A stretch of DNA of 64,000 nt from Acidobacteriota bacterium (GTDB lineage: Bacteria > Acidobacteriota > UBA6911 > RPQK01 > JAJDTT01). The stretch lies in assembly GCA_965209055.1 (NCBI GenBank), contig OZ242374.1:736001-800000 (forward strand). Reading direction: 5' to 3'. The notes beneath the pieces were generated by a model. The model worked only from the letters and a program-made list of their open reading frames with translations, had not been told where the DNA came from and did no database searches. Shown here piece after piece: positions 6,116 through 45,259 of this stretch. Both the position numbers and the translations under genes were made by a program. Within the stretch, counting starts at the first letter, position 1, and every line of letters starts with the position of its first letter.

Positions 6116-7757
6116 GTGATGATGAAACTGAAGAGCCTCGGCGTGATCCTGCTTCTGTGGCTGCCGATGGCCGTTCTCTCCAACCCGAATCAATACCGGG
6201 AAGTCTCAAGCGAACTCGGATTCCTGGGAAAAAATATCACTGGCGACGCCGACAAACCCCTGATCGTTGATTCGATGAGTGGAGGGGTCCTTTGTCTTGA
6301 CTATAACAACGACGGTTATATTGATGTCTACCTGGTCAATGGAGCCCAGAGAGGCGGAAAGAAGACTCCTAACCTTCTCTTTCGCAATAAAGGCAACGGA
6401 CACTTCGAAGAGGTAGCTAAGGAGGCAGGAGTAGCAGATTTGGGTTGGGGGATGGGCGGGACAGCGGCTGACATCGACAACGACGGCGATACGGACCTTT
6501 ACGTTACAAACTTCGGTCCCAATCGGCTTTACCGCAACAACGGCGATGGTACTTTTACCGACTTCACGCAGGCTTCGGGCACGGGCAGTAGTGCCTGGAG
6601 TGCCAGTGCAGCTTTTGCGGACCTCGATGGGGACGGCTGGGTCGACCTCTATGTGACCAACTACGTGGACTTCGACTTCTCTGCCCCCCCCCACATCCGG
6701 CCGATTCTGCCGTTTCAAAGGACGACCGGCCTATTGCGGACCGAAGCGCTATCCGGCCTCCCGCGATGTCCTTTACAGAAACCTGGGCAACGGAGTCTTT
6801 TCGGATGTCAGTAGAACGAGTGGTATTGCCGACCGCAGCTACTATGGACTTGGAGTGGTCTGCACCGATTATGACAACGACGGCGATCTCGACGTTTATG
6901 TCGCCAATGATTCGGTTCCCAACAATCTTTTTCAGAATAACGGCCGGGGTCAGTTCAAAGATGTGGCGCTGCAGGCTGGCGTAGCCGTGGATGCCAACGG
7001 AAGAGAGCAAGCGGGGATGGGGGTCGACGCCGGGGATTATGACAACGATGGCTGGATGGATCTGTATGTGACGAATTTTTCGGAAGAGTACAACACCCTC
7101 TATCGCAATCTGGGGAACGGCTTTTTTAGCGACAGCACCCGCGAGACCGGATTAGCTCAACCCACTATGAGCTATTTGGGATTCGGCACAGGTTTCATCG
7201 ACTTCAACCGTGATGGTCGCGTGGACCTCTTTGTCGCGAATGGTCATCTCTACCCCAACGTGCCACCCTATTCGATGCCGGATCAGTGGTTCTTGAATAT
7301 TGGGAACAGCCAGTTTCGCGATGTTTCGAATCAGGCATTCCCCTCACCAACCGCCGCCGTTGGACGCGGGGCGGCGTTTGTCGATCTCGACAATGACGGA
7401 AGTCTCGAGATCGTCGTCTCCATTCTGGATGATCAACCGCTGGTCTACCGTCGAGACCAACTGGGGAATCACTGGCTGGGCCTGAGACTCCAGGGAACAT
7501 GCAGCAATGGCGACGCCCTGGGGACGCGTGTCTTTCTGTCTTCAAAAAAAGGTGGTCCTCAGCAGATGAGAGAGGTACGGAGTTCCTCCAGCTATTGCTC
7601 ACAAAATGACCCGCGCATTCTCTTTGGCGTGCCCGACGGGGAAGCGGCGCTCAGGGTTGAGATTCGTTGGCCCAGCGGAAAGACATCGGTGCTCAAGGAC
7701 CTGAAACTCAATCGCTATCACGAAGTTGTAGAACCGGCTTGTGACGAGCCCGGCTGA
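6116..7757 (+). pseudogene. CRTAC1-family FG-GAP + ASPIC/UnbV protein, frameshifted at a C9 tract
   Basis: ORFs 6116-6814 and 6855-7757 are the two halves of one gene. Removing one C from the run at 6684-6692 restores SAPPTSGRFCRFKGRPAYCGPKRYPASRDVLYRNLGNG, which matches the paralogues. Confidence 0.8.
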
Positions 7758-8550: not shown

Positions 8551-11500
8551 ATGCGACGTAATTCATTGGCCCTAGTGCTGTTGGTCGCCATCGTCCTGGC
8601 GTCGACCGGCGGTCTCAGGGCCCAGGCGGAAGGGTCCGGGACCATTACCGGCCGAGTGCTGGACGACACCACCGCGGTGGTTCCCGGGGCTGACGTTGAG
8701 GCCGTCAACGAGGCGACGGGCCTCCGCAGAACCGGCATCTCCAACGAACAGGGGGTCTTCAGTTTCGCCGCTTTGCCGGTGGGCTCCTACACCCTCAGTG
8801 TAGAGATGCCCGGCTTCAAGAAGGCAGTGGTGGAAGGGATCCAACTCGAGGTGTTCGCCGTGGTGGATCACACCTTGACGCTTCAGGTGGGTGAAGTCAG
8901 CGATACGGTGTTGGTCACGGCCGAGGCGACGGTCGTCGACCGGAGAACCGCCGAGCTGGGCACCGTGATCGGCGAGGAGATGGTGGAGGAGCTGCCGCTG
9001 AACGGAAGAGGGTTCCTGCAGCTCGCCGGGATTCAGGCCGGCGTGCAGGCCGGCGATTCGGCTCCCGGCGTCGCGCAGTGGGCTTACGGTCCTCGCCAGA
9101 CCTCCGCGGCCATATCCGGGACGCGGGTGAGTTCTACGTCGTACGTATTCGACGGAATTCCTTTCAAGGAACATTTCTACGGTGCTCCGGGGGCCCTCGT
9201 TCAAGTCGACGCCATTTCGGAATTCAAGGTCCAGAAGGGCTTTTTCACGGGCCGCGGGCAGACCCCGGGCGTGGTCAGCGTCGTCACCAAACAGGGAACC
9301 AACGCGATCAGTGGAAGCGCCTGGTTCTTTCACCGCAACGACAACCTGGACGCCAGAAGCTTTTTTGACCGGGAACTCGGAGAGTTTCGGCAACACCAGT
9401 GGGGATTCGAGGTCGGGGGGCCGGTACTGAAGGACAAGTTGTTCTGGTACGTCTCCTTGGAGGGGTTGAACTCAAGCCGTTTCAACACGCAGTTCCTCAC
9501 CGTACCGCCGACAAGATTTCTCCAGGGGGATTTTTCTTCCTTGTCGACTCCCGTCATTGACCCGATGACGGGTGAGCCTTTTCCCAACAACCAGATTCCG
9601 TCCAATCGCATTCACCCCTGGGCCCGGTTGTACATGGAGGATGGACTGATCCCGGCGCCCAATCTTCCGGGCACCGCCAACAACTTCACGGGTGCGGCGC
9701 CGAGAATCCAGGACGACACGAAATGGATCTGGCGTGGAGATTGGCAGGCTACAGACAACGATAAAGTCTTTGCCCGTGTGATCCACTCCGACTCGCAACT
9801 GTTCGACAGCAGAATCAACAGAGGCGCGAATGTCGAGTATCCGCTCTACGGAAGAAATGCCGTCGTCAACTGGACCCACGTATTCGCCAATAACCTGGTT
9901 CTGGATGCGCGGGCCGGATTGAACCGCGCCATCATGTCGCTGGCGCAAAACCTGGAACGGGACACGGACCCGATCTGGTCGGAGAGGTACGGCATCCGGA
10001 ACATCAACACGACTCGGACCTGCAACTATGCCCCGGCTGCAGGCATGGTCAGCTACACGCGTTTTGGCGGCGCCGGCAACTGCATCGTCCCGGTCAACAA
10101 CGACCTCTACTACATGGCCGACATGAGCTACACCCAGGGCCGGCACGAGATGACCTTCGGCATGACCATCATCGACCGGTTCACACAGCAACTGGCTGCT
10201 TCATGGACCCAGGGGAGCTTCCAATTTTCAGGAATCATTACCGGGAACGACGTTGCCGATTTCCTGCTGGGACATCCCGAGAACTCCACGGGCGCCGCGG
10301 CGGCCGGAGCGAATCGAGTCTCCATGTGGTGGGACGCCTATTTCGAGGACCGCATCCGCGTCACGCCCAATTTCAGCCTGACCCTGGCCTTGCGCTACCA
10401 GGTGCACCCCTGGCTGGCCCTGGAGGTCGGACCTGAAGGGGGCAACTATCTGGACATCATGGACTTCACGCGTCCGCGCGGAGGGGTGATCTTTGGAGGG
10501 CCCGGGAGTCTCATCGACACCGACTTCAATGACTTTGCTCCCCGGATCGGGTTCGCCTGGACACCCACTGCCAACCAGAATTTCGTGCTCCGGGGCAGCT
10601 ACGGTGTCTTCTATGATGAAACACCGGGTAACGATCTGGCCTGGGACAGCTCCGGTCCGCAGAATGCATTCATCAACAACGCCATCAGCCGGGACCCGAA
10701 GAACCCCATCGACATCGCCACACTGTTCAAGGATCCTCCCGTATTCGATCCGGACAACTTTAACGAGATTCTGGATATGAGCGATCCGATCGGGTACGTC
10801 TCACTGATTACCAGCAAGAGACGGAGCCCTTATCTGCAGAACTGGACCCTGAGTATCCAGAACATGCTTCCGGGCCAAGTCTTGCTTGAGACGGCCTATG
10901 TCGGATCGACGGGAAGGAAGCTGTCCCAGAGGCAGGAACTCAATCGGCCGCTTCCGCAGCTTGGCGCGCCCCCCTTCGAACAGGAGCGGCGCCCCTGGCC
11001 CAATATCGGCTTCAATATCCAGGATGCCGGTGCGGGGATGTCCGACTACAATGCGCTTCAAGTCACCCTCAGAAAAACCGGCACCAAATTGAGCTTCCTT
11101 ATGGGCTATACCTATGCGAAGACAACCGACTGGGATTCCTTTGGGTCGGTGACGACGTATCGGCTCACCGACACCAACAACGCTCGAAGCGATTGGGATA
11201 TGGGACATCGTCTGTCCTTCAGTTGGAACTACCTGCTTCCGAAAATGGAAGGACAGTCCGGCTTGATCCGGAATCTCCTGGGCGGTTGGCAGTTTGGTGG
11301 AATTACGACGCTGAACAGCGGACTGCCGATTACGATCGGCATGTCCAGCGACAACTCCAACACGGGAAGCACGTACAACGCGCGTCAGCCGAACCGGTTG
11401 CGCAACGGCACCAGGGGCAACCAGGACATCCAACAATGGTTCAATACGGCCGCCTTTGCCTTGAATCCCATCAATACATACGGGAACAGCGGCCGGAATA

Positions 11501-11733
11501 TCATCGATCGGGACGGCATCATCAACCAGGATCTGGCTCTGATCAAGAACTGGGCCCTGCCGATGCTACCCACCGAAGAGGGGCGGTTGCAGCTCAGGTT
11601 CGAGTTCTTCAATGCCTTCAACCACCCGAACTTCGGGGGACCGAGCTCCAATATTCAGAGTGCAGCCTTCGGAAGGGTCAGCAGCGCGTTGTTCGGCCGG
11701 GTGATACAAACTGCCTTGAAGGTCTATTTCTGA
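8551..11733 (+). CDS. TonB-dependent receptor with N-terminal carboxypeptidase-regulatory-like domain (Oar-like)
   Basis: Signal peptide; motifs GTITGRVLD..AVVPGA, ELPLNGRGFLQL, FHRNDNLDARSFF and NDFAPRIGFAW; ends LKVYF. Confidence 0.92.
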   Translation: MRRNSLALVLLVAIVLASTGGLRAQAEGSGTITGRVLDDTTAVVPGADVEAVNEATGLRRTGISNEQGVFSFAALPVGSYTLSVEMPGFKKAVVEGIQLEVFAVVDHTLTLQVGEVSDTVLVTAEATVVDRRTAELGTVIGEEMVEELPLNGRGFLQLAGIQAGVQAGDSAPGVAQWAYGPRQTSAAISGTRVSSTSYVFDGIPFKEHFYGAPGALVQVDAISEFKVQKGFFTGRGQTPGVVSVVTKQGTNAISGSAWFFHRNDNLDARSFFDRELGEFRQHQWGFEVGGPVLKDKLFWYVSLEGLNSSRFNTQFLTVPPTRFLQGDFSSLSTPVIDPMTGEPFPNNQIPSNRIHPWARLYMEDGLIPAPNLPGTANNFTGAAPRIQDDTKWIWRGDWQATDNDKVFARVIHSDSQLFDSRINRGANVEYPLYGRNAVVNWTHVFANNLVLDARAGLNRAIMSLAQNLERDTDPIWSERYGIRNINTTRTCNYAPAAGMVSYTRFGGAGNCIVPVNNDLYYMADMSYTQGRHEMTFGMTIIDRFTQQLAASWTQGSFQFSGIITGNDVADFLLGHPENSTGAAAAGANRVSMWWDAYFEDRIRVTPNFSLTLALRYQVHPWLALEVGPEGGNYLDIMDFTRPRGGVIFGGPGSLIDTDFNDFAPRIGFAWTPTANQNFVLRGSYGVFYDETPGNDLAWDSSGPQNAFINNAISRDPKNPIDIATLFKDPPVFDPDNFNEILDMSDPIGYVSLITSKRRSPYLQNWTLSIQNMLPGQVLLETAYVGSTGRKLSQRQELNRPLPQLGAPPFEQERRPWPNIGFNIQDAGAGMSDYNALQVTLRKTGTKLSFLMGYTYAKTTDWDSFGSVTTYRLTDTNNARSDWDMGHRLSFSWNYLLPKMEGQSGLIRNLLGGWQFGGITTLNSGLPITIGMSSDNSNTGSTYNARQPNRLRNGTRGNQDIQQWFNTAAFALNPINTYGNSGRNIIDRDGIINQDLALIKNWALPMLPTEEGRLQLRFEFFNAFNHPNFGGPSSNIQSAAFGRVSSALFGRVIQTALKVYF

Positions 11734-15567: not shown

Positions 15568-17277
15568 CTAGTCCGGCTCCTCGACCCTGAGAATCTGGTC
15601 GGGTTGGACGCCGTTCAATACCTGAACCTTGCCCGACGGCCAGCGGATCTCCAGAGACTCGACGCCTTCTTCCTTCCCCAAACCGAAATGAACCCGACGG
15701 TCCGGCGAGGACATGAGGCCCACCGTCGAGGAAACAAGGTTGTGAAGGGTCCGTCCCGAGGCCGTCCGCAGCAGGACGGAGGCTCCGATGGCGTCCCGAT
15801 TGCTGGCCCGGCCGCGCAGGTCCAGCATCAGCCAGTGGTTTCCGTTGCCGCCCGAATTTTGCAGAATCCTCGGCTCTTGGTTCAGCGACGTAACGACGAT
15901 ATCCAGGAATCCGTCATCGTTCAGATCTCCGAAGGACGAACCGCGCTGGTAGGCGATGCGCATGAAATCCTGGCCCAGGCTCTCGGAGACATCGGCAAAG
16001 GCCGTCCCCTCCAGGTTCCGCAGCATGGTGTCGTGCTGGGCGGTGTCGGGACTCAGGTATTCCAGGCCCCCGTTGGCCGAATAGATGTCCTTCCAACCGT
16101 CGTTGTCGAAATCGATGAACCCGCTCCCCCAGCCCGTGAACCTGCGGCTCAGCTTGGCCACCTGAGTCCGGTAGCTGACGTACTCGAAGAACCGCCCGCC
16201 CCGGTTCTGAAAGAGCCCGTGGAGCTGGTTTCTGAGGTCGTTGTAGAAAATGTCGACCTGTCCGTCATTGTTGAAATCCTTGGCGTCGGCCCCCATGCCC
16301 GAGCCGGCCACCGCCGAACCTTTGTAGGCGACGCCCAGGAAAAACGAGGCTTCCCGAAAGGTTCCGTTTCCCTGATTCAGATAGAGGAAATTCTGCACCG
16401 TGTCGTTGGCGACGAACACGTCCGGACGGCCGTCCTGATTGAAATCGGCAATTCCCAACCCCATGCCCTTGCCCAACGCCTTGTCGAGGCCCGCCTCGCG
16501 TGAGACATCGGTGAACTTCCCGCCGCCCAGATTCCGGTAGAGCGTGTTGGAAACACTCCGGACGGTCTTGGGACTGCAGTAGAACGGAGTGCCGTCGGGA
16601 AACAGGCAGGGCTTGTCGGTCTTGGCATTCCAGAAGGTGTATTGAGAAACGAACAGGTCCAGCAGGGAATCCTGGTCGTAGTCGAACCAGGCGGCGTCCA
16701 CGCTCAACAGGTCTTTCGGCTTGTCGTCGAGGCCCGACCCGATGGTCACGTCGGTGAACGTCCCGTCGCCGTTGTTTCGATACAGGGTGTTGGGTCCGGC
16801 ATTGCCGATGAACAGGTCGCGGTCGCCGTCGTTGTCGTAGTCGCCGGCGGTCACCCCGAAACAGTAGCCCAATCCGGCCCCCGTCAGGCCGGCCTGCCGG
16901 GTGACGTTCTCGAATCTGCCTCCGCCCAGGTTGCGCAGGAGGCAGTTGTGAAACGAGCGATCGGTCTTCTCGACTTCGGGCAGCTTGGCGCCGTTGGTGA
17001 AGAAGATGTCCTGCCTGCCGTCGCCGTCGTAGTCGAAGATGGCCACGCCGCCGCACATGGGCTGGGGAAAGTACTTGCGCCCGGTGAAGTCGTTATTTGA
17101 TTGGTAGGGAATATCCGATTTGGATGCGATGTCGATGAATCGGATGGATCCCGGATCCTCCCCGCGGGCGGCTGTTTCGGACGGGGCACTCAAGACCCAA
17201 ATGAAAGGGGCAGCCAATACCGGAATGAATAGTCGGCTCCACGCCAGGGTCCATCCCATGGGATGCATCGGAGTCAT
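15568..17277 (-). CDS. CRTAC1-family FG-GAP repeat + ASPIC/UnbV protein
   Basis: Repeated DxDxDGxxDLF and LYRNxGxGxFxDV motifs, with C-terminal SNRDAIGA...HFGLG...IRWPSG. Confidence 0.9.
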   Translation of the reverse strand: MTPMHPMGWTLAWSRLFIPVLAAPFIWVLSAPSETAARGEDPGSIRFIDIASKSDIPYQSNNDFTGRKYFPQPMCGGVAIFDYDGDGRQDIFFTNGAKLPEVEKTDRSFHNCLLRNLGGGRFENVTRQAGLTGAGLGYCFGVTAGDYDNDGDRDLFIGNAGPNTLYRNNGDGTFTDVTIGSGLDDKPKDLLSVDAAWFDYDQDSLLDLFVSQYTFWNAKTDKPCLFPDGTPFYCSPKTVRSVSNTLYRNLGGGKFTDVSREAGLDKALGKGMGLGIADFNQDGRPDVFVANDTVQNFLYLNQGNGTFREASFFLGVAYKGSAVAGSGMGADAKDFNNDGQVDIFYNDLRNQLHGLFQNRGGRFFEYVSYRTQVAKLSRRFTGWGSGFIDFDNDGWKDIYSANGGLEYLSPDTAQHDTMLRNLEGTAFADVSESLGQDFMRIAYQRGSSFGDLNDDGFLDIVVTSLNQEPRILQNSGGNGNHWLMLDLRGRASNRDAIGASVLLRTASGRTLHNLVSSTVGLMSSPDRRVHFGLGKEEGVESLEIRWPSGKVQVLNGVQPDQILRVEEPD

Positions 17278-17315: not shown

Positions 17316-18884
17316 TTACGGCCGCTGCCGCCAGATCTGGACCAGCTCCCAGTCCACGCCTTCCCTGGCCTGGCCGAAGTTTCCCAGGATGATGTCGGTG
17401 TCGCCGTCTCCGTCGATGTCACCCAGCTCAAGGGTGATGTAGTCGCACGGAATATCGGCCAAAGAGCGGGGTTGGAAGGACCCGGGTCGGGTCTGTTCGT
17501 ACCAGACCACTCCCGGAAGATTGTATCGACGGCGCACCTCCTCGGTCAGATTGGGGAAATAGGAAGCTGCCACCAGGTCGAGATCGCCATCTCCGTCCAG
17601 GTCCCCCGCTTCGGCGCGGAGAGCGCCGTAGTAGACGTCCACGGGGTGATGGGCAAAGGAAAGGTCGCCTTTGTTCTCCAGCCACGACAGCCCATGGTAG
17701 GGCCTCATCTCCGCCATGGCGTCCAGTGTGTCTCCGTGGGTGAAGAGCACATCCAGGTCCCCGTCTTGATCCAGATCGACCATTTCGAGTCCGCTCGAGC
17801 CCCAGTGCGGGTGAGGCGCGACGAAGAGGGTTTTCTTTTCGAAGGTCCCCGGTCCCCGATTGAGGAACGCGACCACCGCTTCGTGTTCCTGCGAGAGCAG
17901 GGCAATGAAGTCGGTCCTTCCGTCCCGGTCGAGGTCCACGATGGGAATGTGAATCGCGCCGGCCCGGTCATCCAGTTCCACGGACCTGAAATCGCCGGCT
18001 CCGAGTTTCGAGGCTTTTTCCGGACCGGACCCGTTTTCCAGATAGTGAATGCCCCCTACGGTCCTCCATCCGAACTCGGCGACGATGACGTCCACGTCCT
18101 GATCCCCGTCAAAGTCTGCTGCCCGGACGTCGGCGACCCTGCCGATCCCGGTAGCCAGACGGTAGACCTCGAATTCACGCTTCCCGGTCCGCCGGAGCCA
18201 AGCCACCGATCCGGTTCGCTGGTCGGTCGGCTTGGGCCATCCGAGATCTGCGATCAGCAGGTCGGTCCTTCCATCCCGATCCAGGTCCACGACCTCCGCA
18301 TGGCAGGGATTGGTGAGTTTGGCGATGGGTCGGAGGTCCATTTGACCGTCATCGGGATCGGTCCAGCTCACCCACCCGGAGATCATGTCGCTGACCACCA
18401 ATTCGGGGCCCTCCAGATCCGGAAACAGTTCCAGGAGCCGGACATTGGCTGCTCCGGGTTGGAGACCGCGAACCTTCCTGCCCGGCAAGAGTCGGCGGTC
18501 GAACTTGAGCTCCGGCCCCCCGCGCTTTGCCGTCCAACGCGGCGTGTCCAATCGGTCAGGCGCCTTCGACCGGAAGTAGGAGGCGACTTGCAGGGCGTCG
18601 ACGTCCCAGATCGGCTTGTTGTGGGATTGCAGGAGGGTGATGTTGGCCAGTTTGAACTTCCTCTGAATCAGGCCGGGCCATTCCTTCTTGGGGAGGATCT
18701 CCGGGGGCGTCCATTCGTGGCACTGGGTACACGCCTGCCGAATCTTCGTTCCCAAGGCTTCCGCATCCGTGGGCTGGTGGAGTTCGGATGAGACCCCGCT
18801 GGCGGAGGGCCGGGCGGGGCTGAGCAAGAAGAGACTCAGGCAGAGAATCGGGAAACAGCCGGCCGAATGACCACGCGACGTCAT
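17316..18884 (-). CDS. FG-GAP/VCBS repeat protein with an N-terminal c-type heme motif
   Basis: Signal-like segment, then CTQCH..PP..LP...W, then DLDRDGRTD repeats. Start moved to 18884 because the longer N-terminus runs through a REP palindrome. Confidence 0.8.
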   Translation of the reverse strand: MTSRGHSAGCFPILCLSLFLLSPARPSASGVSSELHQPTDAEALGTKIRQACTQCHEWTPPEILPKKEWPGLIQRKFKLANITLLQSHNKPIWDVDALQVASYFRSKAPDRLDTPRWTAKRGGPELKFDRRLLPGRKVRGLQPGAANVRLLELFPDLEGPELVVSDMISGWVSWTDPDDGQMDLRPIAKLTNPCHAEVVDLDRDGRTDLLIADLGWPKPTDQRTGSVAWLRRTGKREFEVYRLATGIGRVADVRAADFDGDQDVDVIVAEFGWRTVGGIHYLENGSGPEKASKLGAGDFRSVELDDRAGAIHIPIVDLDRDGRTDFIALLSQEHEAVVAFLNRGPGTFEKKTLFVAPHPHWGSSGLEMVDLDQDGDLDVLFTHGDTLDAMAEMRPYHGLSWLENKGDLSFAHHPVDVYYGALRAEAGDLDGDGDLDLVAASYFPNLTEEVRRRYNLPGVVWYEQTRPGSFQPRSLADIPCDYITLELGDIDGDGDTDIILGNFGQAREGVDWELVQIWRQRP

Positions 18885-18898
18885 GCTCGAGATGGTAG

Positions 18899-18980
18899 CC
18901 AGGAGGGGGGACAGTCTTGTCCCCCATTCCTGTCTCTCCACAATTCCAAGAATCGGCGGTTAGGAAACCGCCGCTCCCAT
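18899..18980. repeat. Inverted pair of REP-like palindromes
   Basis: CCAGGAGGGGGGACAGTCTTGTCCCCC on + and ATGGGAGCGGCGGTTTCCTAACCGCCGA on -, between divergent genes. Confidence 0.7.
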
Positions 18981-18996
18981 CCATATAATCTGCTTC

Positions 18997-21900
18997 ATGG
19001 CCCGGAAAGGCCGAGGCTCGCGGCGCCGACCGAGAAAGAAAAAACGAGTTCGAAGGACCTCGGCGAAGACAAGCTCTCGAACTGCTCCGAAGAAACCGTC
19101 CCCGGACCGGAGGCCCAAGAGCCTCTACCTGGGCTTGGCGGTCCTAGGCGCCATTCTCGCAGCCGGAACTCTCTATTTCTTCAAAGAACGAACTGAATCT
19201 TTTACCCGGAACGTCTGGACCGAGGAGTACACCATCCCTCCCAGGAATCTTCCGCTCGGGGATGTGGAAGAAGCGTTGAAGAAGGTTCCGGAAGGCGCCG
19301 ACGAATGGGATACGGAAGCGCTGGACGTCGAAATCGAGAGCCGGCTCGAGAAGCTGGCCGTTGCGCTCAAGGACACGCCGGATTCCGATTCGTTTCCTTC
19401 CGGGCTGTTGAGCTCCGGATTCAAGGGGACGCCGCTGGAGCCGGCCGCCACCCGGAAGGTCAAGTCCGAAGAGGGGTTGGAGATTCTCCGCGGCGAGGCG
19501 GCCGGCGAGGAGCGTGTCACGGCTGCGGCGTTCCCGTCGGAGGTCGCCAAGCTCCTGCGGGAAGCCGTCCGGATCCGTGATGTGAAATTCAAGGTGACGA
19601 GGATCGAATCGCCCCGGTTTCCAGGATCATCCGTCGTCAGCGACGTCATCTACACCATCGTCGGTCAGGGCAAGGATGGCGAATCCTTGCAGTGGAAGGG
19701 GGACTGGCAACTCAGTTGGCAAAAGGACCGAACGGGCCGCTGGGAACTCTCGCGGCTGAAAGTCCTTGCCGCGTCGCGGGCGAGAAGTGTCGGAAGCGCC
19801 TTCACGGAGGTCACGCATCAAGCGCTGGGAAAGAATGATTCTTACCGGAAGCAGTTGCTTCAGGGAGTCGAGTATTGGCAGGGAGTCCTCGACTATGTGG
19901 CCGGAATGGATGTCTATGGTCACAACGGCGTCGCAATTGCCGATATCGACGGCGACGGCGACGAGGATTTCCATGTCGCCCAGCCGGCGGGCCTGCCCAA
20001 TCTGCTGTTTCGCAACGAGGGAGACGGCACCTTTCTGGACGTCACGGAAATGGCGGGAGTCGACGTCCTGGACAACACGGCCTCCAGTTTCCTGGCCGAC
20101 ACGGACAACGACGGGGACCCGGACCTGATCCTCATCGGGACCAGCTCACTGCTGTTTCAAAACGACGGTTCCGGCCGGTTCAGCCTGGCCAGCGACTCCG
20201 GGTTCGAGGCCATCGATGACACCGACGGCAGCAAAGTGTCCGCCGCCGTGGCCGACTACGACCGGGACGGACACCTGGACATCTACGTCTGCTCATACGC
20301 CTTTTGGCGGGGACAGGAGGAATTGGGCAACTATCCCTTTCCCTACCATGACGCCAACAACGGCGCCCCCAACATCCTCTTGCGGAACCAGGGGAATGGG
20401 TCGTTCCGCGACGTCACCCTCCAATCCGGAATGAACCGGAACAATCTGCGTTACAGCTTCGCCGCGGCGTGGGGTGACTACAACGGCGACCGATACCCGG
20501 ACCTGTACGTCGCCAACGACTTCGGTCGCAACAACCTCTACCGGAACAACGGTGACGGCACCTTCACCGACGTGGCCCGGGAAGCGGGAGTGGAGGACAT
20601 CGGAGCCGGGATGAGCGCGGCCTGGGAGGACTACGACAACGACGGCCGTCTGGACCTCTACGTGGGAAACATGTGGTCGTCGGCGGGTCAGCGGATCACT
20701 TCGTTGCGGCAGTTTCAGAGCCAGCGGCCGCAGGAAGAGGTCCAAAACTATCAACGGCATGCCAAGGGCAACTCGTTGTTCTCCAATCGGGGCGACGGCA
20801 CGTTCGAGGAGGTCGGCGCACAAGCGGACGTGGAGTTGGGACGGTGGGCCTGGAGCAGCGATTTCTTCGACTTCGACAACGACGGTCATGAAGACCTGTA
20901 CGTGGTGAACGGCTTCATCACCAACGAAGACACGAAGGACCTCTGAAGCTTCCTCTGGCGGCAGGTCGTGTCGCAATCGCCATCGGAATCTGCTGTGGCT
21001 TCGGCCCCGCCCGGAGCGCGAATCGGTTCCGAATACCGGAACGGATGGGACGCGGTGAACCTGCTGATCCGGCAGGGCGGTTCCCTGAGTGCGCGCGAGA
21101 CCAATAACTTCTACATCAACTGTGGCGACGGAACCTTCGCCGACGCCTCGGGCATCACAGGGTTGGACTTCCCCGAAGATGGACGGGCCTTCGCCGTGGG
21201 CGACCTCGACCAGGACGGCGACCTGGACCTCATCCTCAAGAATCGAAATTCGCCGCAACTCCGGCTGATGCGAAACCGGTCCGGGAGCAGCTACAACGCG
21301 GCCAGTTTCGACCTCAGGGGCACCCGCAGCAACAGGGACGCCGTCGGAGCGAAGATCACCATCGAGACCGGCGCCGGCTCCAGGTCGAAATTCGTCAAGA
21401 TCGGATCCGGCTTCCTGTCCCAGAGTTCCCGCCGGGTCTGGTTCGGCCTGGGGAACCAGGACGGGATCCGGCAGGCCAGGATCGAGTGGCCCAGCGGGGA
21501 TGTCCAGACTGTTCGCGATCTTCCGGCCAACCACAGGATCGTGATCGTAGAGGGGCGGGACAGGACGGAGACCATTCCGTTTCGGTCTCTCCCGCAAGAT
21601 GACCCCAGGCCGGACGAAGGGGGGAAAGCGCCCGCTGGGGATCCTCCTTTGTACAGCGGAACCTGGTTGCTGGAGAAACTTGCCGCACCCAAGTTCCGGT
21701 TGCCCGGTTTGAACGGAAGGCATCATTCCCTGGGCATGTACCGGGGCCGCCGGGTGTTGTTGAACTTCTGGGCGACTTGGTGTCCGCCTTGCCGGGAAGA
21801 ACTGCGGGACCTGCGATCACATCAGGACGATCTGCGAGACCTCGGCGCCGCGATTCTGGCCATCTCCGTCGATGATCCCTCGGACCGCGCAGAGGTACTG

Positions 21901-23058
21901 GAGTATGCCCGGGAGGAGGAGCTCCCCTTCCCGGTGCTGCTTGCCGACGAGGACGTCATCGCGGCGTACAACCTGGTGAATCGCTTCCTGTTCGAAAAGA
22001 TACGCGACCTGGCCGTTCCCACGTCCATGCTTTTGGATCGGGACGGGAACATCGTCAAGATCTACCGGGGCAGAGTTCCGGCCCGCCAGATCATCCGGGA
22101 CATTCAAAGCACCCCTCGGTCTGAAGAAGAACTGGTCCGGGCCGCCTTTCCCTTTCCCGGGAAATCCATCGGCATGGAATTCGCCCGGGACTACACCATG
22201 ATCGCCGATTCATTCCGAAGGGCCGGACTCAACGACCAGGCGGCGGTCTACTATCAGCACCAGTTGCTGGAGCAGGGCCACGACACGCCCCAGTCGTGGA
22301 ACAGCCTCGGGCTTCTCTACGAGCAAGAGGGGAAATTGGACCAGGCGCGTGAGGCCTACGAAAAGGCCCTCCGGCTGAATCCCGACTACGCGGACAGCCA
22401 CAACAATCTCGGCGCGATGCGCTTGAAGGCGGGGGAAATCGACAAGGCCATAGACAGCTACCGTACCGCCGGGCGATTGGCTCCCTGGTCAGCCGACATC
22501 CAGAGCAACCTGGGCCATGCGCTGCTGGAAAAGGGTCTGCACGCCGAGGCTGTTCGTGCGTTCCGGAAGGCCCATGAGATCGACGTCGAGGTCCCGCAAC
22601 CCCTGGTCAACCTCGGCAACGCCTATCTGCAGATGAAGCGATTTCAGGAAGCGGTCTCGGCCTACGGCAAGGCATTGCGCATGCGGCCGGATTCCGCTGA
22701 GGTCCACCACAACCTGGGCTACGCGTTTCTGGAATCGGGCCGGCTCGACGACGCCTTGGCGTCCTTCGACAGGGCGGTTCGGCTGCGGCCCCAATACGCC
22801 AGCGCCCAGAACAACAGGGGGACGGTCTTCTTGCGAAAGGGCAGGTTCGAAGACGCGGGCCGCGCGTTCGAGGGGGCGATCCGGGCCGACTCCGAGTTCA
22901 GGCCCGCGTATATCAACCTTGCCATGACCCGCCTTCGGGGAAACCAAATCGGGAAAGCCGAGGACGTGCTCCGCCGCCTGCTCAAGGTGAAACCGGACGA
23001 TGCCGTGGCCCTGGACCTGCTGGCGCAGATCGAGCAGGTGAAGTCCTCGGCGCCATAG
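18997..23058 (+). CDS. Membrane-anchored FG-GAP/ASPIC-UnbV + TlpA-like redoxin + TPR protein with in-frame TGA (putative selenocysteine) at 20944-20946
   Basis: ORFs 18997-20946 and 20968-23058 are in the same frame, separated only by TGA + SFLWRQV. The propeller continues across the TGA into the ASPIC/UnbV domain, then NFWATWCPPC, then TPRs. Length is 1353 aa if read through. Confidence 0.75.
20944..20988 (+). promoter_or_regulatory. Candidate bacterial SECIS element
   Basis: UGA, an 11-nt spacer, then stem GCGGCA (20958-63) / UGUCGC (20969-74) closing the loop GGUCG. It contains GCAGGUC, as in the E. coli fdhF SECIS apex. Confidence 0.6.
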
Positions 23059-41486: not shown

Positions 41487-41556
41487 GAGGGGGGACAGTC
41501 TTGTCCCCCTCTTCATCTCCAGGGGCGGGGACAGTCTTGTCCCCCTCTTCATCTCC
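41483..41556 (+). repeat. Tandem 36-bp duplication of a GTAG-type REP palindrome
   Basis: GTAGGAGGGGGGACAGTCTTGTCCCCCTCTTCATCTCC followed by a near-identical copy. The GTAG supplies the DUF1501 stop codon. Confidence 0.8.
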
Positions 41557-41665
41557 GATCCGAAACCGTTGGCCGGGAAGTCTGTGCACCCAGATTCCCT
41601 TTTTCGGCCAGCATTGCGGGAGTCGGCGCGGGGTGGAGGCCTTCTTTCTGTCAAATAAGTCCGGG

Positions 41666-43552
41666 ATGAGAAGATCCTTCCTCCTGATCGCCCTGCTCTT
41701 GCTGAGTCTCCCCGCGAAGGCTCTCGCCCAGGACGAAAGCGCTGTGGCGGCCGGAGCTCCGCGCGCCCCCGTACGGGACGAAATGATGCGTCCCATCACG
41801 GCAGGAGGTTTCGTCGACGGAGCGCCCGTGGTCTTTTCCGACGCCACAGCCTCGAGCGGGCTGGACGGTTTCCTGCATAGCGCCGGATCGAAGGTGAAGC
41901 GGTTCCTGATGGAGGTCCCGTCCGGGGGAGTGGCCCTCTTCGACTACGACCGGGACGGGTGGTTGGACATCTACCTGGTCAACGGTTCCAGCTTCGAGGC
42001 GGTTCGTGGCCAGCAGGAACATCCGAGGGCGGCCCTCTATCGCAACAACGGGGACGGCACCTTCACCGACACCTCGGTGACGGCGGGAGTGGCCAACGAA
42101 GGTTGGGGTTTCGGCGCCGCCGTGGGGGACTACGACAACGACGGCTGGCCCGACCTGCACGTTTCCAACTTCGGTAAGGACCGGCTCTATCGAAACAACG
42201 GCGACGGGAGCTTCACCGACGTCACGGACCGGGCCGGGATCTCGATCCCGGGATGGTCGACGGCCGCTTCCTTCGGAGATTTCGATCGGGACGGAGATCT
42301 GGACCTTTTCGTCTGTGGATACCTGGAGTTTCCGCCATGCTCTGCGGCGGCAGACAACCCGCCGGAAGAATGTCTGCGGGACCGGAAAGCGGAGATGGAG
42401 ACGGCTCCGGAGATTCGGCTCTCGGAGGAGGCATTGGCCCGGTCCTTTTCCATGATTCCCAAGCACGCCTGCTCTTTTCGCGGAAAACAGGTCCTTTGCG
42501 GTCCCCTGGGACTCATCGGAATTCGCGACTTTCTCTTCCGCAACAACGGGGACGGCACCTTCACCGAGATCGCCGCCGCCGCCGGCGTCCACGATCCGAA
42601 CCGGTACTACGGGTTCGCCAGCACCTTCGTGGACGTGGACGGAGACCGTTGGGTGGACTTGGTGGTCGCCAACGATTCCAAACCCAACTATCTCTACCGG
42701 AACCGGGGGGACGGGACCTTCGAGGACATGAGCTATCCGTCCGGGTTCGCGTTCAACCAATATGCAAAAGCCCAGGCGGGAATGGGCCTGGCGGTGGGGG
42801 ACTACGACAACGACGGGCAGGTCGACTTCTATGTGACCAATTTCTCAGACGACCACAACACCCTCTACAAGAACGAAGGGGATAATTTTTTCCTGGATGT
42901 GACCTTCCAAGTGGGATTGGGCGAGGCTACATTTCCCTTTCTGGGGTGGGGAACCGGATTTCTGGACTATGACAACGACGGGTGGAAGGACCTGTTCGTG
43001 GCCAACGGACATATTTATGCGGCCGTGGATTCCTACGATTGGGGGACCACCTACTCGCAGCGGCCGCAACTTTTCCGAAACCTGGACGGAGAACGCTTCG
43101 AGGTGGTCCCTCCCGCCACGGGGAGCGGTCTGGCCGTCGTCGTCTCGGCCCGGGGAGCCGCCTTCGGCGACCTGAACAACGACGGGCGCGTCGACGTGGT
43201 GCTCAACTGTGCCGACGGCCCGCCGGTGGTCCTGAAAAACGAGGCCTCGACGACCGGGCATCACTGGTTGTCCCTGCGGCTGGTAGGCGGGGAAAAGAGC
43301 CCCCGCGACGCCATCGGGGCCACCGTCTTCGTGACCGCCGGCGGCCGGCGGCAGCGGGGGGACGTCATCAGCGGAGCCAGCTATTCCTCCTCCTCCGACT
43401 TTCGGCTGCACTTCGGACTGGGCCGAGCCGAAAAGGTCGAGTCGGTGGAAATCCTTTGGCCCAGCGGCCGGAGCCAGACTCTGTCTGATCTGCCCGTGGA
43501 CCGGATCATCACCATCCATGAGGGGCAGGGACCGACCCATTCAGGTAGTTGA
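41666..43552 (+). CDS. CRTAC1-family FG-GAP + ASPIC/UnbV protein
   Basis: Signal peptide MRRSFLLIALLL, FG-GAP repeats, and RDAIGA..LHFGLG..WPSG. Confidence 0.9.
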   Translation: MRRSFLLIALLLLSLPAKALAQDESAVAAGAPRAPVRDEMMRPITAGGFVDGAPVVFSDATASSGLDGFLHSAGSKVKRFLMEVPSGGVALFDYDRDGWLDIYLVNGSSFEAVRGQQEHPRAALYRNNGDGTFTDTSVTAGVANEGWGFGAAVGDYDNDGWPDLHVSNFGKDRLYRNNGDGSFTDVTDRAGISIPGWSTAASFGDFDRDGDLDLFVCGYLEFPPCSAAADNPPEECLRDRKAEMETAPEIRLSEEALARSFSMIPKHACSFRGKQVLCGPLGLIGIRDFLFRNNGDGTFTEIAAAAGVHDPNRYYGFASTFVDVDGDRWVDLVVANDSKPNYLYRNRGDGTFEDMSYPSGFAFNQYAKAQAGMGLAVGDYDNDGQVDFYVTNFSDDHNTLYKNEGDNFFLDVTFQVGLGEATFPFLGWGTGFLDYDNDGWKDLFVANGHIYAAVDSYDWGTTYSQRPQLFRNLDGERFEVVPPATGSGLAVVVSARGAAFGDLNNDGRVDVVLNCADGPPVVLKNEASTTGHHWLSLRLVGGEKSPRDAIGATVFVTAGGRRQRGDVISGASYSSSSDFRLHFGLGRAEKVESVEILWPSGRSQTLSDLPVDRIITIHEGQGPTHSGS

Positions 43553-43576: not shown

Positions 43577-45259
43577 GTGATCCAAGACCGGGTGAGTTGG
43601 GTTGCCGTATCGTTGCTTTGGCTCGCTCCCGTAACCGGCGCGGCAGAAGAACCCGCCAGTCCCGGAATCGTCTTCGAGGAAGCCTCTTCCCGTTCCAGCG
43701 GCATCCGCTGGGTTCACGAGAACGCCATGTCTCCCCAGCGGCACTTGCCGGAGACGGTCGGTCCGGGGTGCGCCTTCTTCGACTACGACAATGACGGATG
43801 GATGGATCTGTACCTGGTCAATAGCGGGGTTTCCGATTTTTACGCGCCCCCGACGCCGCTCCGGAACGCCCTCTACCGCAACGACGGGGATGGGACCTTC
43901 ACCGACGTCACCGACGCAGCGGGAGTAGCAGGGGGTCGATTCGGAATGGGCGTGGCGGTGGCCGACTACGATGGCGACGGCTGGCAGGACCTCTACGTCA
44001 CGAACTACGGGCCCAACTATCTCTATCGAAATAACGGCGACGGAAGCTTCTCGGAGGTGGCCCGGGATGCGGGGGTCCGGGCTCCCGGCTGGTCCACCAG
44101 CGGGGTCTGGTTCGACTACAACGGTGACGGGAGGTTGGACCTGTTCGTCTGCAGCTTCGTCCGTTACGACGAGTCCCTCAGCAAGCTCTGCTTCGATCAC
44201 CTGCGGAAACGGACCTACTACTGCCTGCCGACCCTCTTCGATCCCACTTCCAGTCATCTTTTTCGCAATGACGGCAACGGCCGCTTCACCGACGTCAGCC
44301 GGGAATCAGGGATCGCCGGGCACCCGGGCAAGGCGTTCGGCGTGGTGGCCACCGACGTGAACGACGACGGGTATCTGGACCTGTTCGTTGCCAACGACAC
44401 AGTGGCGGACTTTCTCTTCGTGAACCAGGGAGACGGGACCTTCCGGGAGATGGGCCTCTGGGCCGGAGTCGCGTTCGACGACGGCGGCAAGCCGCGCTCC
44501 GGCATGGGCGTGGATGCCACCGACTACGACGGCGACGGCCGGCAGGATCTCTTCGTCTCCAACATCGACCACGAAGTATTCAGCCTCTACCGGAATCAGG
44601 GGGACCTGACCTTCACCGACGAAGCGGCCGACGTGGGGAAATTGACTTGGTTGCTGAGCGGGTGGGGATTGCGCTTTTTCGATGCGGACAACGATGGTGA
44701 CGACGACCTGTTCCTGGCCAACGGCCACCCGGACGACATGGTGGAAGAGTTCCGCCCGAGCCTGGGGTATCGGGAACCCCTCCTCTACTTCGAGAACGTC
44801 TCCGGCCACTTCCGCGACCGTAGCGGCCAATCGGGCGCCGTCTTTTCTCGCGAATTTTCGGCCCGGGGTCTGGCCACGGGAGACGTGGACAACGACGGTG
44901 ATCCGGACCTGATCATCACCGACAACGGCGGACCGCCCGTGCTTCTCCTGAACCGCGGAGGCAACCGCAACCGTTGGGTCGGCCTCGATCTGATTCCCCG
45001 CCAAGGCCAAACCGCTGTAGGCGCCCTCATCACCTGGTCGGCCGCAGGTGTCGAGCGCCGCCGCTTGAAAAGGGCCGGTGGAAGCTACCTCTCCTCCAGC
45101 GATCCCCGGGAGATCCTGGGTCTCGGCGTAGCCAAAACTCTCGACTGGGTGCAGGTCCATTGGCCCAGCGGCGTCAAGACCAAGCTGACCGGGCTCCAAC
45201 CGAACCAATACCACAAGATCAACGAGTCGGCAGGAGGGGGGACTGTTAGTCCCCCGTGA
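43577..45259 (+). CDS. CRTAC1-family FG-GAP + ASPIC/UnbV protein
   Basis: Signal peptide, FG-GAP repeats and [20 protein letters not shown]. The last codons lie in a REP. Confidence 0.9.

Follow-up and report, generated by a model that had tools for sequence, protein, structure and literature searches.

A probable selenoprotein gene with an in-frame UGA in an FG-GAP/UnbV-thioredoxin-TPR fusion of an Acidobacteriota bacterium

The SECIS element of Escherichia coli fdhF, a hairpin that lies within the coding sequence behind an in-frame UGA, is well described in its structure and in the role of its loop G and U. Among proteins, the CRTAC1/ASPIC-UnbV family (9ETN) combines an FG-GAP propeller with an UnbV domain, while the ResA/TlpA/CcmG reductases are defined by their thioredoxin-type fold and WCxxC motif. 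Human CRTAC1 belongs to the same domain family; we know of no account of a biochemical function for CRTAC1-type domains, and of no Sec, thioredoxin-fold domain or TPR in CRTAC1 itself. Extracytoplasmic thioredoxin-fold proteins that use Sec are represented by the ResA-like WAxxUGC selenoproteins (NF041054), where the Sec, by the name of the family, is part of the thioredoxin-fold motif. In the PilB-type Trx-MsrA-MsrB protein of Neisseria, an envelope protein, the catalytic Cys is recycled in cis by a TlpA/DsbE-like thioredoxin domain that is in turn fed by DsbD.

Here, we describe a locus in a 64,000-nucleotide stretch of Acidobacteriota DNA (the window) that shares traits with each of these systems. 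Two open reading frames, 18997..20946 and 20968..23058, lie in one frame and have as their sole separator a TGA at 20944-20946; reading across the site gives ...NGFITNEDTKDL-TGA-SFLWRQVVSQSP..., with 703 codons downstream of the TGA. A preliminary description of the window, made from its letters, had proposed an in-frame UGA inside an FG-GAP/ASPIC-UnbV-thioredoxin-TPR fusion, and the TGA does join the two frames into 1353 codons. On comparative sequence evidence, we conclude with a probability of about 0.88 that 18997-23058 is one gene whose UGA codon 650 is read as selenocysteine. Decoding would follow the ordinary bacterial SelB/SECIS route, with the SECIS formed by a 6-bp hairpin encoded within the conserved peptide WRQVVS. 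The features of the locus are as follows.

18997..23058, plus strand, whole predicted selenoprotein gene, 1353 codons including Sec650, plus stop
19123..19182, plus strand, single predicted TM anchor, residues 43-62, read from the translation
19930..21270, plus strand, CRTAC1-like FG-GAP beta-propeller (Pfam FG-GAP_3, 1.8e-42)
20911..21078, plus strand, putative Sec-bearing helical insert in the propeller, residues 639-694, three helices
20944..20946, plus strand, TGA probably read as selenocysteine (U650), from comparative evidence
20958..20974, plus strand, SECIS-type hairpin, stem GCGGCA/UGUCGC and loop GGUCG, inside codons W-R-Q-V-V-S-Q
21340..21540, plus strand, UnbV/ASPIC domain (Pfam PF07593, 3.4e-17)
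21682..22080, plus strand, ResA/TlpA-like thioredoxin-fold domain (Pfam AhpC-TSA 2.7e-24, Redoxin 7.8e-20)
22267..23034, plus strand, C-terminal TPR repeats (Pfam TPR_1, 2e-47, and related families)

From N- to C-terminus, the product would thus consist of a TM anchor, the propeller, the UnbV/ASPIC domain, a ResA/TlpA-like WCPPC domain and TPR repeats. Pfam recognizes five FG-GAP_3 stretches upstream of the TGA and, downstream of it, one further FG-GAP_3, UnbV_ASPIC, AhpC-TSA/Redoxin and the TPR repeats. The 42-residue tail that precedes the TM segment is strongly basic in the translation; together with the one hydrophobic segment, this points by the positive-inside rule to an N-in/C-out orientation with the remainder extracytoplasmic, and the product is probably a type-II membrane-anchored protein of the periplasmic or extracytoplasmic space. 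The AF2 model of the propeller (pLDDT 92.4, pTM 0.92) matched murine CRTAC1 in Foldseek (9etn_A, E 2.1e-28, TM 0.73 by target length), and database relatives are named 'CRTAC1 family protein'. Compared with mouse CRTAC1, the Sec-carrying helical insert is unaligned (query residues 293-458 unaligned to 9etn), and the window protein has a membrane anchor whereas CRTAC1 has an EGF domain. The helices of the insert span model residues 381-387, 395-400 and 409-423, and U650 is modeled as the first residue of helix 381-387. The same genome has roughly 45 further FG-GAP/UnbV paralogues, and most of them lack the insert, as judged from gaps at the site in 34 of the 50 tblastn rows covering it, some paralogues giving more than one row. 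Paralogues within the window carry an intact propeller and UnbV in a single ORF (e.g. 15568..17277, minus strand), in agreement with the preliminary description.

The thioredoxin-fold domain carries the motif WCPPC at residues 928-932 (CPPC codons 21781-21792; C929, C932). Its fold (residues 896-1028) is that of ResA (Foldseek 2f9s_A, E 1.1e-11, TM 0.90 by target), and phmmer against the PDB found both ResA and TlpA; unlike these reductases, it is part of a fusion, in cis behind a propeller, and its proposed target is the Sec of its own chain. It stays under all NCBIfam cut-offs, including those for ResA-type (NF002854, 74.3 versus 170) and TlpA (NF047696, 51.5 versus 230) proteins. A weak match to NF041054 was obtained (54.4 bits versus a cut-off of 300), and the protein is not a member of that family; in contrast to the Sec-containing motif there, the WCPPC motif is all-Cys and the Sec would lie about 280 residues upstream, in the propeller. 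A peroxiredoxin of the PrxQ/BCP type was rejected as well, the scores being below the cut-offs (NF053650, 43 versus 260; NF006960, 36.2 versus 140). With the PilB-type fusions, the locus would share the principle of cis recycling by a fused thioredoxin domain, but the window protein has no Msr domain (no Pfam match to PF01625 or PF01641), and the proposed catalytic residue is a Sec on the propeller.

The TGA is followed by 11 nt (20947-20957), a stem strand GCGGCA (20958-20963), a loop GGTCG (20964-20968) and the opposite strand TGTCGC (20969-20974), exactly where the preliminary description had placed a hairpin. Its statement that the fdhF SECIS also begins 11 nt after the UGA was borne out by the E. 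coli K-12 gene, which reads TGA, 11 nt and then GGTTGCAGGTCTGCACC. The two genes are alike in the in-frame UGA, in the onset of the hairpin 11 nt downstream and in the placement of the element within the coding sequence, and the apex 7-mer GCAGGTC (RNA GCAGGUC) stands 15 nt after the TGA in fdhF and 14 nt after it in the window gene. The window stem, at 6 bp, falls short of that of fdhF, lacks a bulged U and closes a 5-nt loop; the protein is unrelated, and the likeness is known from sequence.

Thermodynamically, the GCGGCA/UGUCGC hairpin is the minimum free energy (MFE) fold of a 42-nt stretch, and in a 60-nt context another, longer structure takes its place as the MFE fold. By energy alone, the window hairpin does not exceed its shuffles (z = +0.72; 152 of 200 shuffles fold at least equally well), so that its significance comes from comparative data only. 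All six pairs form in 27 of 30 TGA loci versus 1 of 14 sense-codon loci that encode the same SFFWRQVV peptide (pairs formed in the latter: 6, 4, 4, 4, 4, 3, 3, 3, 3, 2, 2, 2, 2 and 2), and this conservation of the hairpin, which the preliminary description had left to be checked, indicates that the structure tracks the TGA and not the peptide. Across 66 distinct sequences, 91.2% of cells are paired, a value reached by 0 of 500 shuffles and compared with 21-71% in slid controls. Five pair types occur at pair 18-28 (CG 37, GU 11, GC 9, UA 4, AU 2), and complete 6/6 pairing is found in 76 of 81 matches to a DNA pattern of TGA plus motif. In divergent members, a hairpin persists whose register is shifted and whose loop contains GU.

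The TGA itself is conserved far beyond this assembly. Among 112 related loci, 84 have it at the aligned site, including some as little as about 30% identical, and the DNA pattern matched at least 120 other species genomes, whose titles name Acidobacteriota, Planctomycetota, Verrucomicrobiota and Latescibacterota; all 81 pattern matches in the 80 loci listed, which come from other species genomes, have an in-frame TGA in family members. An order-level sample (62 matches, 76 genomes) contained one TGA in 60 matches, two in 1 and none in 1, and a phylum sample of 97 matches had TGA in 71, none in 25 and TAA in 1. At the Sec site, neither TAA nor TAG was found in any homologue examined. The window genome encodes a second, 37% identical paralogue with TGA at the same site (C1:4191442). 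The family comprises an architecture with TPR of about 1350 aa (type A, the window gene), one without TPR of about 950 aa (type B, to which this second copy belongs) and one without the thioredoxin-fold domain but with U-x-C at the site (type C). Residues S651, W654 and R655 do not vary among 85 family members, which include sense-codon forms; they are encoded by the stretch of 7 codons that separates the TGA from the called GTG start, and this stretch must therefore be translated.

The genome also has the Sec machinery whose presence the preliminary description had made a point of checking, namely tRNA-Sec (68.9 bits; ARAGORN calls it tRNA-SeC, anticodon TCA), SelA (443 bits), SelB (wing, 74.6 bits) and SelD (299.6 bits). 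Elsewhere in this genome, TGA is an ordinary stop: it ends 1841 long coding ORFs (TAG 774, TAA 328), and coding continues in frame past it in 6.2% of cases (TAG 10.1%, TAA 14.6%). No SelA-level match was found in three TGA-form genomes of 95-99% completeness; tRNA-Sec was detected at 68-76 bits in 4/4 TGA-form genomes without a SelA match and in 4/5 TGA-form holders from other phyla. The tests named beforehand as able to refute the Sec reading (missing Sec machinery, a TGA private to the assembly, TAA or TAG in homologues, separately translated halves) all came out in its favor.

A full-length but selenium-free protein would result if the hairpin promoted near-cognate readthrough (e.g. by Trp, Cys or Arg) or pausing. 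The many residues tolerated at the site (S, N, A, G, D, E, M, C) fit this, as do the shortness of the hairpin and the finding that no Rfam model recognizes it, but the hairpin spacing and GCAGGUC apex are those of the E. coli fdhF element, tRNA-Sec is present in genomes holding TGA forms, and all 84 TGA forms among the 112 loci possess a partner Cys. Moreover, a sense codon would be cheaper if any residue served, yet TGA and pairing persist across about 30-100% identity and four phyla, and we regard such readthrough as very improbable. The slimmer chance that the locus makes two products, a 649-aa propeller fragment ending at the UGA and a 696-aa protein restarted at GTG 20968, draws on gene-caller output, which contains exactly these pieces, and on the likelihood of some truncated product whenever Sec insertion is inefficient. 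Against it, the cut would fall inside the propeller, ahead of its last blade and the UnbV domain, whereas sense-codon homologues and the window paralogues are single ORFs; the invariant S, W and R are encoded between TGA and GTG; and the frame is preserved in every TGA form. The GTG, which encodes the latter of the two Val residues of WRQVV, is part of the hairpin and has no AGGAGG-type Shine-Dalgarno sequence upstream; the preliminary description, too, saw no evident one. For a pseudogene, nonsense mutation or assembly error, there is the stop codon itself and nothing more; it is refuted by the recurrence of this TGA, between flanks conserved in frame, at 84 of 112 loci and in no fewer than 120 more species genomes of four phyla, and we give it next to no weight.

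Cys (or Ser) had been expected at the site in other genomes, and this expectation largely failed for Cys: 110 full-length homologues have S (36), N (36), A (17), G (7), C (4), D (4), M (4) or E (2). Cys in just 4 of 110 is unusual for a catalytic Sec and shows that the protein can occur with no redox residue in this position. The suspicion that the WCPPC domain matters, in turn, was strengthened by its co-occurrence with Sec. Among the 112 loci, 74 combine U with CxxC in the fused ResA-like domain and 10 combine U with U-x-C in the absence of a thioredoxin-fold domain, so that every one of the 84 Sec forms has a partner cysteine; the 28 sense-codon forms keep CxxC in 4 and have none in 24. Similarly, 150 tree rows divide into U with CxxC (29), U without (1), non-U with CxxC (13) and non-U without (107), and 16 of 17 CxxC-less clades are purely non-U, assuming that a lost CxxC is never regained. 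Parsimony gave 1 change among U rows versus 8 among non-U rows (induced tree lengths 12.4 and 34.1), and the association has 2 supported independent contrasts in this tree; by these sequence data, it stands on few independent events. Among the evaluable pattern matches, CxxC is absent in 6 of 70 Sec forms, of which three (L144, L152, L166) have no Cys in the region, one (L173) has CxxS and two are short.

That replacement of Sec (by S, N, A, G and others) has mostly gone along with loss of CxxC in the same lineages suggests that the CxxC serves the Sec. The N-terminus of a helix is a classic place of redox-active Cys or Sec, and the Sec at the start of a short helix in the propeller insert may accordingly be a redox-active selenol. 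After reacting with an oxidized substrate, it would be regenerated by forming a selenenylsulfide, either in cis with the ResA-like CxxC or, in type C, with the Cys two residues on; electrons for the CxxC would come from the cytoplasm by way of a membrane protein of the CcdA/DsbD type. A DsbD_TM protein of the DsbD/CcdA type is encoded in the window genome, and no conserved redox partner gene was found beside either copy there. From sequence patterns and the model, we judge a relay between Sec and CxxC slightly more probable than its absence. The wider picture, held more tentatively and at a little under even odds, is of an ancestral, widespread extracytoplasmic selenoenzyme in which a propeller-helix Sec acts as nucleophile and is recycled in cis by CxxC or U-x-C, Sec having been lost repeatedly to non-redox residues with subsequent decay of the CxxC.

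A true selenoprotein could also hold its Sec outside any thiol relay, as a metal or metalloid ligand on the propeller or as a translational gate that senses selenium, in which case the CxxC would act on a different substrate. This would rival the relay alone, not Sec decoding. The sense-codon forms that outnumber Cys forms, the Sec forms without any Cys in the thioredoxin-fold region and the few independent events behind the Sec/CxxC link all lean this way. It is nevertheless unlikely in our estimate, though a serious contender, given that U-x-C substitutes for the missing domain in all 10 type C loci, that 16 of 17 CxxC-less clades are non-U and that the modeled Sec sits at a helix N-terminus.

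The recoding mechanism is ordinary; the family is not. The comparative data indicate that the window protein is the founder of a real, widespread and unannotated selenoprotein family, and no family of this kind is described in the literature searched. New are a Sec site that is mostly S, N, A or G in homologues, the co-occurrence of Sec with a partner Cys and, in the model, Sec as the first residue of a helix. Its members, long proteins of about 820-1400 aa, come from no fewer than four phyla whose bacteria abound in the environment, and public calls split or truncate them at the UGA. The window gene is split into pieces of 649 and 696 aa, the latter being P0138; the public cluster that contains the N-terminal piece has 16 members, and among the 15 listed, 10 are likewise 649 aa long. 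In the databases, full-length forms do not exceed 58% identity, even though there are orthologues at 80-94%. Selenoprotein discovery methods that require Cys homologues, as described in one report (PMC12013277), would miss or discard a family whose Sec aligns mostly with S, N, A or G.

The finding bears on annotation and on estimates of selenium use in soils and oceans, and the pattern of Sec, CxxC and U-x-C offers a concrete redox hypothesis for the propeller/UnbV domain family. If the selenoenzyme reading is true, the scarcity of Cys homologues marks a blind spot of Sec/Cys-pair discovery, a redox enzyme would have left its relics in soil and marine bacteria as the large 'CRTAC1 family' of propeller-redoxin-TPR proteins, and the family would be one reason for the retention of the Sec machinery in Acidobacteriota, Planctomycetota and Verrucomicrobiota.

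The gene under study spans two open reading frames that share a frame and are separated by a single TGA:

18997..20946 (+): upstream open reading frame, ending in the TGA at 20944-20946
20968..23058 (+): downstream open reading frame, in the same frame

Translation across the stop reads ...NGFITNEDTKDL*SFLWRQVVSQSP..., and Pfam recognized five FG-GAP_3 stretches upstream of it and another FG-GAP_3, UnbV_ASPIC, AhpC-TSA/Redoxin and many TPR families downstream. Since FG-GAP_3 lies on both sides of the TGA, the stop interrupts a propeller. The in-frame TGA and downstream hairpin of the preliminary description are present as stated, and its claim that the window's paralogues hold propeller and UnbV in a single ORF was confirmed, for example at 15568..17277 (-). 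Paralogues located in the window are:

about 6765-7733 (+): FG-GAP/UnbV (CRTAC1-like) paralogue
15568-17277 (-): FG-GAP/UnbV (CRTAC1-like) paralogue
17316-18941 (-): FG-GAP/UnbV (CRTAC1-like) paralogue
41501-43552 (+): FG-GAP/UnbV (CRTAC1-like) paralogue
43577-45259 (+): FG-GAP/UnbV (CRTAC1-like) paralogue

The gene is solitary, flanked by a divergent FG-GAP gene on one side and a convergent cupin gene on the other, and no conserved redox partner gene was found in the neighbourhoods of both copies in the source genome (G000). Elsewhere in the window, 8551-11733 (+) encodes a large outer-membrane beta-barrel protein, TonB-dependent-receptor-like with a CarboxypepD_reg domain and unlinked to the selenoprotein.

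Conservation of the TGA was assessed at increasing resolution. In the order (76 genomes), 62 matches at E<=1e-40 contained one TGA in 60 cases, two in one and none in one, and in the phylum sample (401 genomes) 97 matches at E<=1e-50 contained a TGA in 71 cases, none in 25 and a TAA in one, counts in which the TGA may lie off the Sec site, as at L039 and L086, where the site is a sense codon and the TGA elsewhere is probably the terminal stop. We therefore fetched 112 loci, read the aligned codon and relied on these site-resolved counts: a TGA was conserved in 84 loci, and a sense codon was present in 28. Locus L024, from genome G016, contributes a single TGA row to the order, phylum and site-resolved counts as well as to the orthologue search and the hairpin pairing comparison, and is excluded from A1, A2 and A3; G217 contributes a single sense-codon row to the phylum sample. 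None of the conclusions rests on these unpublished genomes or on G098, which is likewise unpublished. In G048, a type-C relative (lacking the thioredoxin-fold domain; G048:C5:1484932-1486047) has two TGA codons within the match, of which the second may be the terminal stop or a second Sec. A DNA pattern comprising the TGA plus those bases that are fixed in the following eight codons matched at least 120 stretches across the species-representative genomes. Among the matches listed, all 81 (80 loci) lay in frame in family members with NG..D[LT] context, and record titles named Acidobacteriota (Vicinamibacteria, Bryobacterales, Pyrinomonadaceae, Blastocatellia, Holophagales, Thermoanaerobaculia) as well as Planctomycetota, Verrucomicrobiota (Roseibacillus, Akkermansiaceae) and Latescibacterota.

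The source genome encodes about 45 FG-GAP/UnbV paralogues, of which two have the Sec insert and only one besides the window gene aligns a stop at the Sec site. This second copy is 37% identical, reads ...KDT*SFFWRHVV with its TGA at C1:4191442, and continues with 11 nt, a hairpin and, further downstream, a WCGPC redoxin domain. A crude genome scan for UGA, hairpin and coding signal on both sides returned 16 candidates, both family members among them, and does not amount to a selenoproteome. At C1:479490 (+) and C1:3840626 (-), two in-frame TGA sites resemble each other (...LWSA*G...), each with a coding signature on both sides and the hairpin CGCCCG-GTCC-CGGGTG 11 nt past the TGA; they may represent a further selenoprotein pair or else a conserved gene end.

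Three readings in which the TGA is not a Sec codon were weighed. A gene split into two products would fit the public collections, where the 649-aa N-terminal stump forms a cluster of 16 members (649 aa in 10 of the 15 listed, one named 'VCBS repeat-containing protein [Candidatus Aminicenantes bacterium]') and P0138 is a 696-aa C-terminal piece. The called GTG start of the second product is the second Val of WRQVV, within the hairpin, and the split was rejected because S651, W654 and R655, located after the TGA and ahead of this GTG, are invariant in the 85-row alignment, sense-codon forms included. No full-length database form above 58% identity was found, yet orthologues of 80-94% identity occur in nine genomes; with stump and C-terminal piece both deposited, this indicates that annotation splits the family in two. 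A pseudogene was rejected on the 84 of 112 loci with TGA at the aligned site. A recoded genetic code, with TGA reassigned, was excluded since, among long ORFs with coding signature in the source genome (6.08 Mb, 62.8% G+C, single contig), TGA is the commonest stop (1841, against 774 TAG and 328 TAA) and the least often followed by in-frame coding continuation (6.2%, against 10.1% for TAG and 14.6% for TAA).

GCGGCA, GGTCG and TGTCGC start eleven bases past the TGA and make up a hairpin, which the 42-nt stretch adopts as its MFE fold. The likeness to fdhF claimed earlier was verified: E. coli K-12 fdhF reads TGA, 11 nt, then GGTTGCAGGTCTGCACC, so that the two elements have the 7-mer GCAGGTC in common and their distances from the TGA are equal within one base. 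Since the hairpin is encoded in the codons of W-R-Q/H-V-V-S/A, a peptide that sense-codon homologues also have, these homologues offer a clean control for selection on the hairpin. All six pairs form in 27 of 30 TGA loci, five in two and three in one, this last being a divergent member whose fold has a different register. Pair counts at the 14 sense-codon loci are 6, 4, 4, 4, 4, 3, 3, 3, 3, 2, 2, 2, 2 and 2. Full pairing in TGA but rarely in sense-codon loci implies that synonymous third positions are constrained only where the TGA is present. Across 66 distinct TGA sequences, 91.2% of cells were paired, a value equalled in 0 of 500 shuffles, and sliding the partner by 1-3 columns left 21-71% paired. 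In the same set the covariation score was 0.247 (shuffled mean 0.106), with five forms at pair 18-28 (CG 37, GU 11, GC 9, UA 4, AU 2) and one AU to GC change at pair 20-26. RNAalifold retained the inner four pairs, and 76 of the 81 pattern matches paired at 6/6, though the pattern left the four outer 3' bases free. At five divergent loci (L040, L106, L110, L107, L117) the stems begin 12-17 nt past the UGA and have GU in the loop. In single-sequence folding the window hairpin was no more stable than shuffles (z +0.72), and longer contexts folded otherwise (60-nt z -1.45, 101-nt z +0.51); as E. coli fdhF's own element reached just z -1.6, this test has little power. No Rfam model for the element matched 20850-21100 at E up to 10, where a chance snoRNA match was the only hit.

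The Sec machinery that the preliminary description had asked after is encoded in the source genome: tRNA-Sec (68.9 bits; tRNA-SeC with anticodon TCA by ARAGORN), SelA (443.5 bits), the SelB winged-helix domain (74.6 bits) and SelD (299.6 bits). Among holders from phyla other than Acidobacteriota, four of five carry tRNA-Sec at a threshold that, among 14 control genomes, only the two Sec users reach. SelA is present in 297 of the 401 phylum-sample genomes (G098 being one row in this count), including many with sense-codon forms, and its co-occurrence is for that frequency a weak discriminator. In the phylum sample, all four TGA-form genomes lacking a SelA-level match carry tRNA-Sec (68-76 bits). 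Three genomes with a TGA form, G009, G047 and G152 (95-99% complete), have tRNA-Sec at 71-76 bits and no SelA match beyond weak ones to other PLP enzymes; SelA may be missing from the assembly or too diverged to be recognised, or these genomes may make Sec by a different route. The Pfam domain of the source genome's molybdopterin oxidoreductases is free of in-frame stops, and this query revealed no selenoprotein of the FdhA type.

The stop-codon scan also revealed identical ORF pairs in mirrored coordinates between about 86-130 kb and 526-569 kb of C1 (sums about 655,503), and direct duplicates at C1:180933 and 799276 (window 63276, the gene at the right end) and at 197749 and 828304. The assembly thus contains large duplicated segments, which may lie behind its 7.4% 'contamination'.

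Comparative sequence evidence shows one gene with a recoded UGA, whose SECIS-type hairpin is under selection, in a genome that encodes the Sec machinery. The finding of the preliminary description holds, and we put the probability that the UGA is decoded as Sec at about 0.9.

TGA forms are not one clade on either tree. FastTree needs six changes, as does the IQ-TREE quick tree (60 rows), three of them forced by starred branches, and constraining the 14 U rows (TGA at the Sec site) together, a group chosen after the first tree was inspected, cost 228 log-likelihood units (p-AU about 1e-134). With the root placed by midpoint only, the deep branches are TGA forms (types C and B, a mixed clade and type A), and type A, the TPR-bearing type of the window gene, is sister to a large all-sense crown. 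Types A and B, the latter without TPR, have a common hairpin register. Because a gain of Sec needs a simultaneous SECIS, and because of this common register, the economical reading would be repeated loss from a Sec-bearing ancestor.

Full-length homologues that share the window gene's architecture at 50-58% identity are common. At the site, where Cys or Ser had been expected, Ser is frequent (36) and Cys rare (4), the other full-length homologues having N (36), A (17), G (7), D (4), M (4) or E (2); these residues depart from the usual Sec/Cys picture. In an AF2 model (771 residues, pLDDT 92.4, pTM 0.92), helix 381-387 has the Sec site as its first residue and belongs to an insert of three helices that separates two blades. 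Helices are typically N-capped by residues such as S, N, D and G, and in thioredoxins, peroxiredoxins and glutathione peroxidases the redox-active Cys or Sec lies at the N-terminus of a helix. Most other paralogues lack the insert (34 of 50 tblastn rows are gapped at the site), and mouse CRTAC1, which apart from this region gave the best structural match (9etn_A, E 2.1e-28), does not align to it.

Potential partner cysteines accompany the Sec site. Among the 112 loci, 74 of the 84 TGA forms have a CxxC ([WFY]CxxC) in the redoxin domain ~260-280 residues downstream, and the remaining 10 (type C) have no redoxin domain and instead U-x-C at the site (DG-U-[STR]-C); the 28 sense-codon forms keep the CxxC in four cases, have the domain region without it in 17 and are short in seven. 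Database sense-codon proteins of sufficient length keep it in 12 of 111 cases, many others retaining only the second Cys or neither. Independent contrasts of Sec and CxxC on the 152-row FastTree gave two supported cases and no significance. By parsimony, the CxxC state changes once in U rows and eight times in non-U rows (induced lengths 12.4 and 34.1). With irreversible loss there are 17 CxxC-less clades, 16 purely non-U and one the U-x-C form; on this topology, which has weak support, 1/17 against an expected 0.27 corresponds to p of about 0.04 (one-sided binomial). Sec forms without CxxC make up 6 of 70 evaluable pattern matches among those listed. L144, L152 and L166 (titled Planctomycetota; U-S-[AS]-F-W-R-H-V-V) have no Cys whatever in the thioredoxin-fold region and are exceptions to the Sec/CxxC rule; L173 has CxxS in place of CxxC, and L153 and L193 are short.

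The family is filed here as a previously undescribed selenoprotein family with a known recoding mechanism. No NCBIfam model was found for the Sec-bearing region, and our literature search for selenoproteins with FG-GAP, ASPIC/UnbV, CRTAC1 or propeller found no relevant account, though supplementary tables or BSepDB might list the family. FG-GAP, ASPIC, CRTAC and propeller do not appear in the available portions of PMC13188914, PMC13326102 and PMC12013277, nor FG-GAP, ASPIC and UnbV in those of PMC4807772; Table S2 of PMC12013277 and S9 Table of PMC4807772 may still list it. The texts searched include two 2026 overviews and the deep-Sep paper, whose pipeline requires Cys homologues.

Co-occurrence and position give a cis redox relay between Sec and CxxC an even or slightly better chance. 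A basic tail and one hydrophobic segment (residues 43-62) would tether the protein to the membrane and leave most of it outside the cytoplasm. In the proposed relay, an oxidised substrate may react with the selenol, positioned at the N-terminus of the helix, which would be regenerated via a selenenylsulfide with C929/C932 of the protein's own ResA-like domain or, in type C, with Cys+2. The redoxin domain resembles the extracytoplasmic reductases ResA and TlpA (TM 0.90 by target), a DsbD_TM protein is encoded in the source genome, and a CcdA/DsbD-type protein would serve to reduce the CxxC. The PilB-type Trx-Msr fusion offers the closest functional parallel that can be named, and the window protein differs from it by having no Msr domain in Pfam. 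The persistence of sense-codon forms shows that the scaffold is useful without the redox site.
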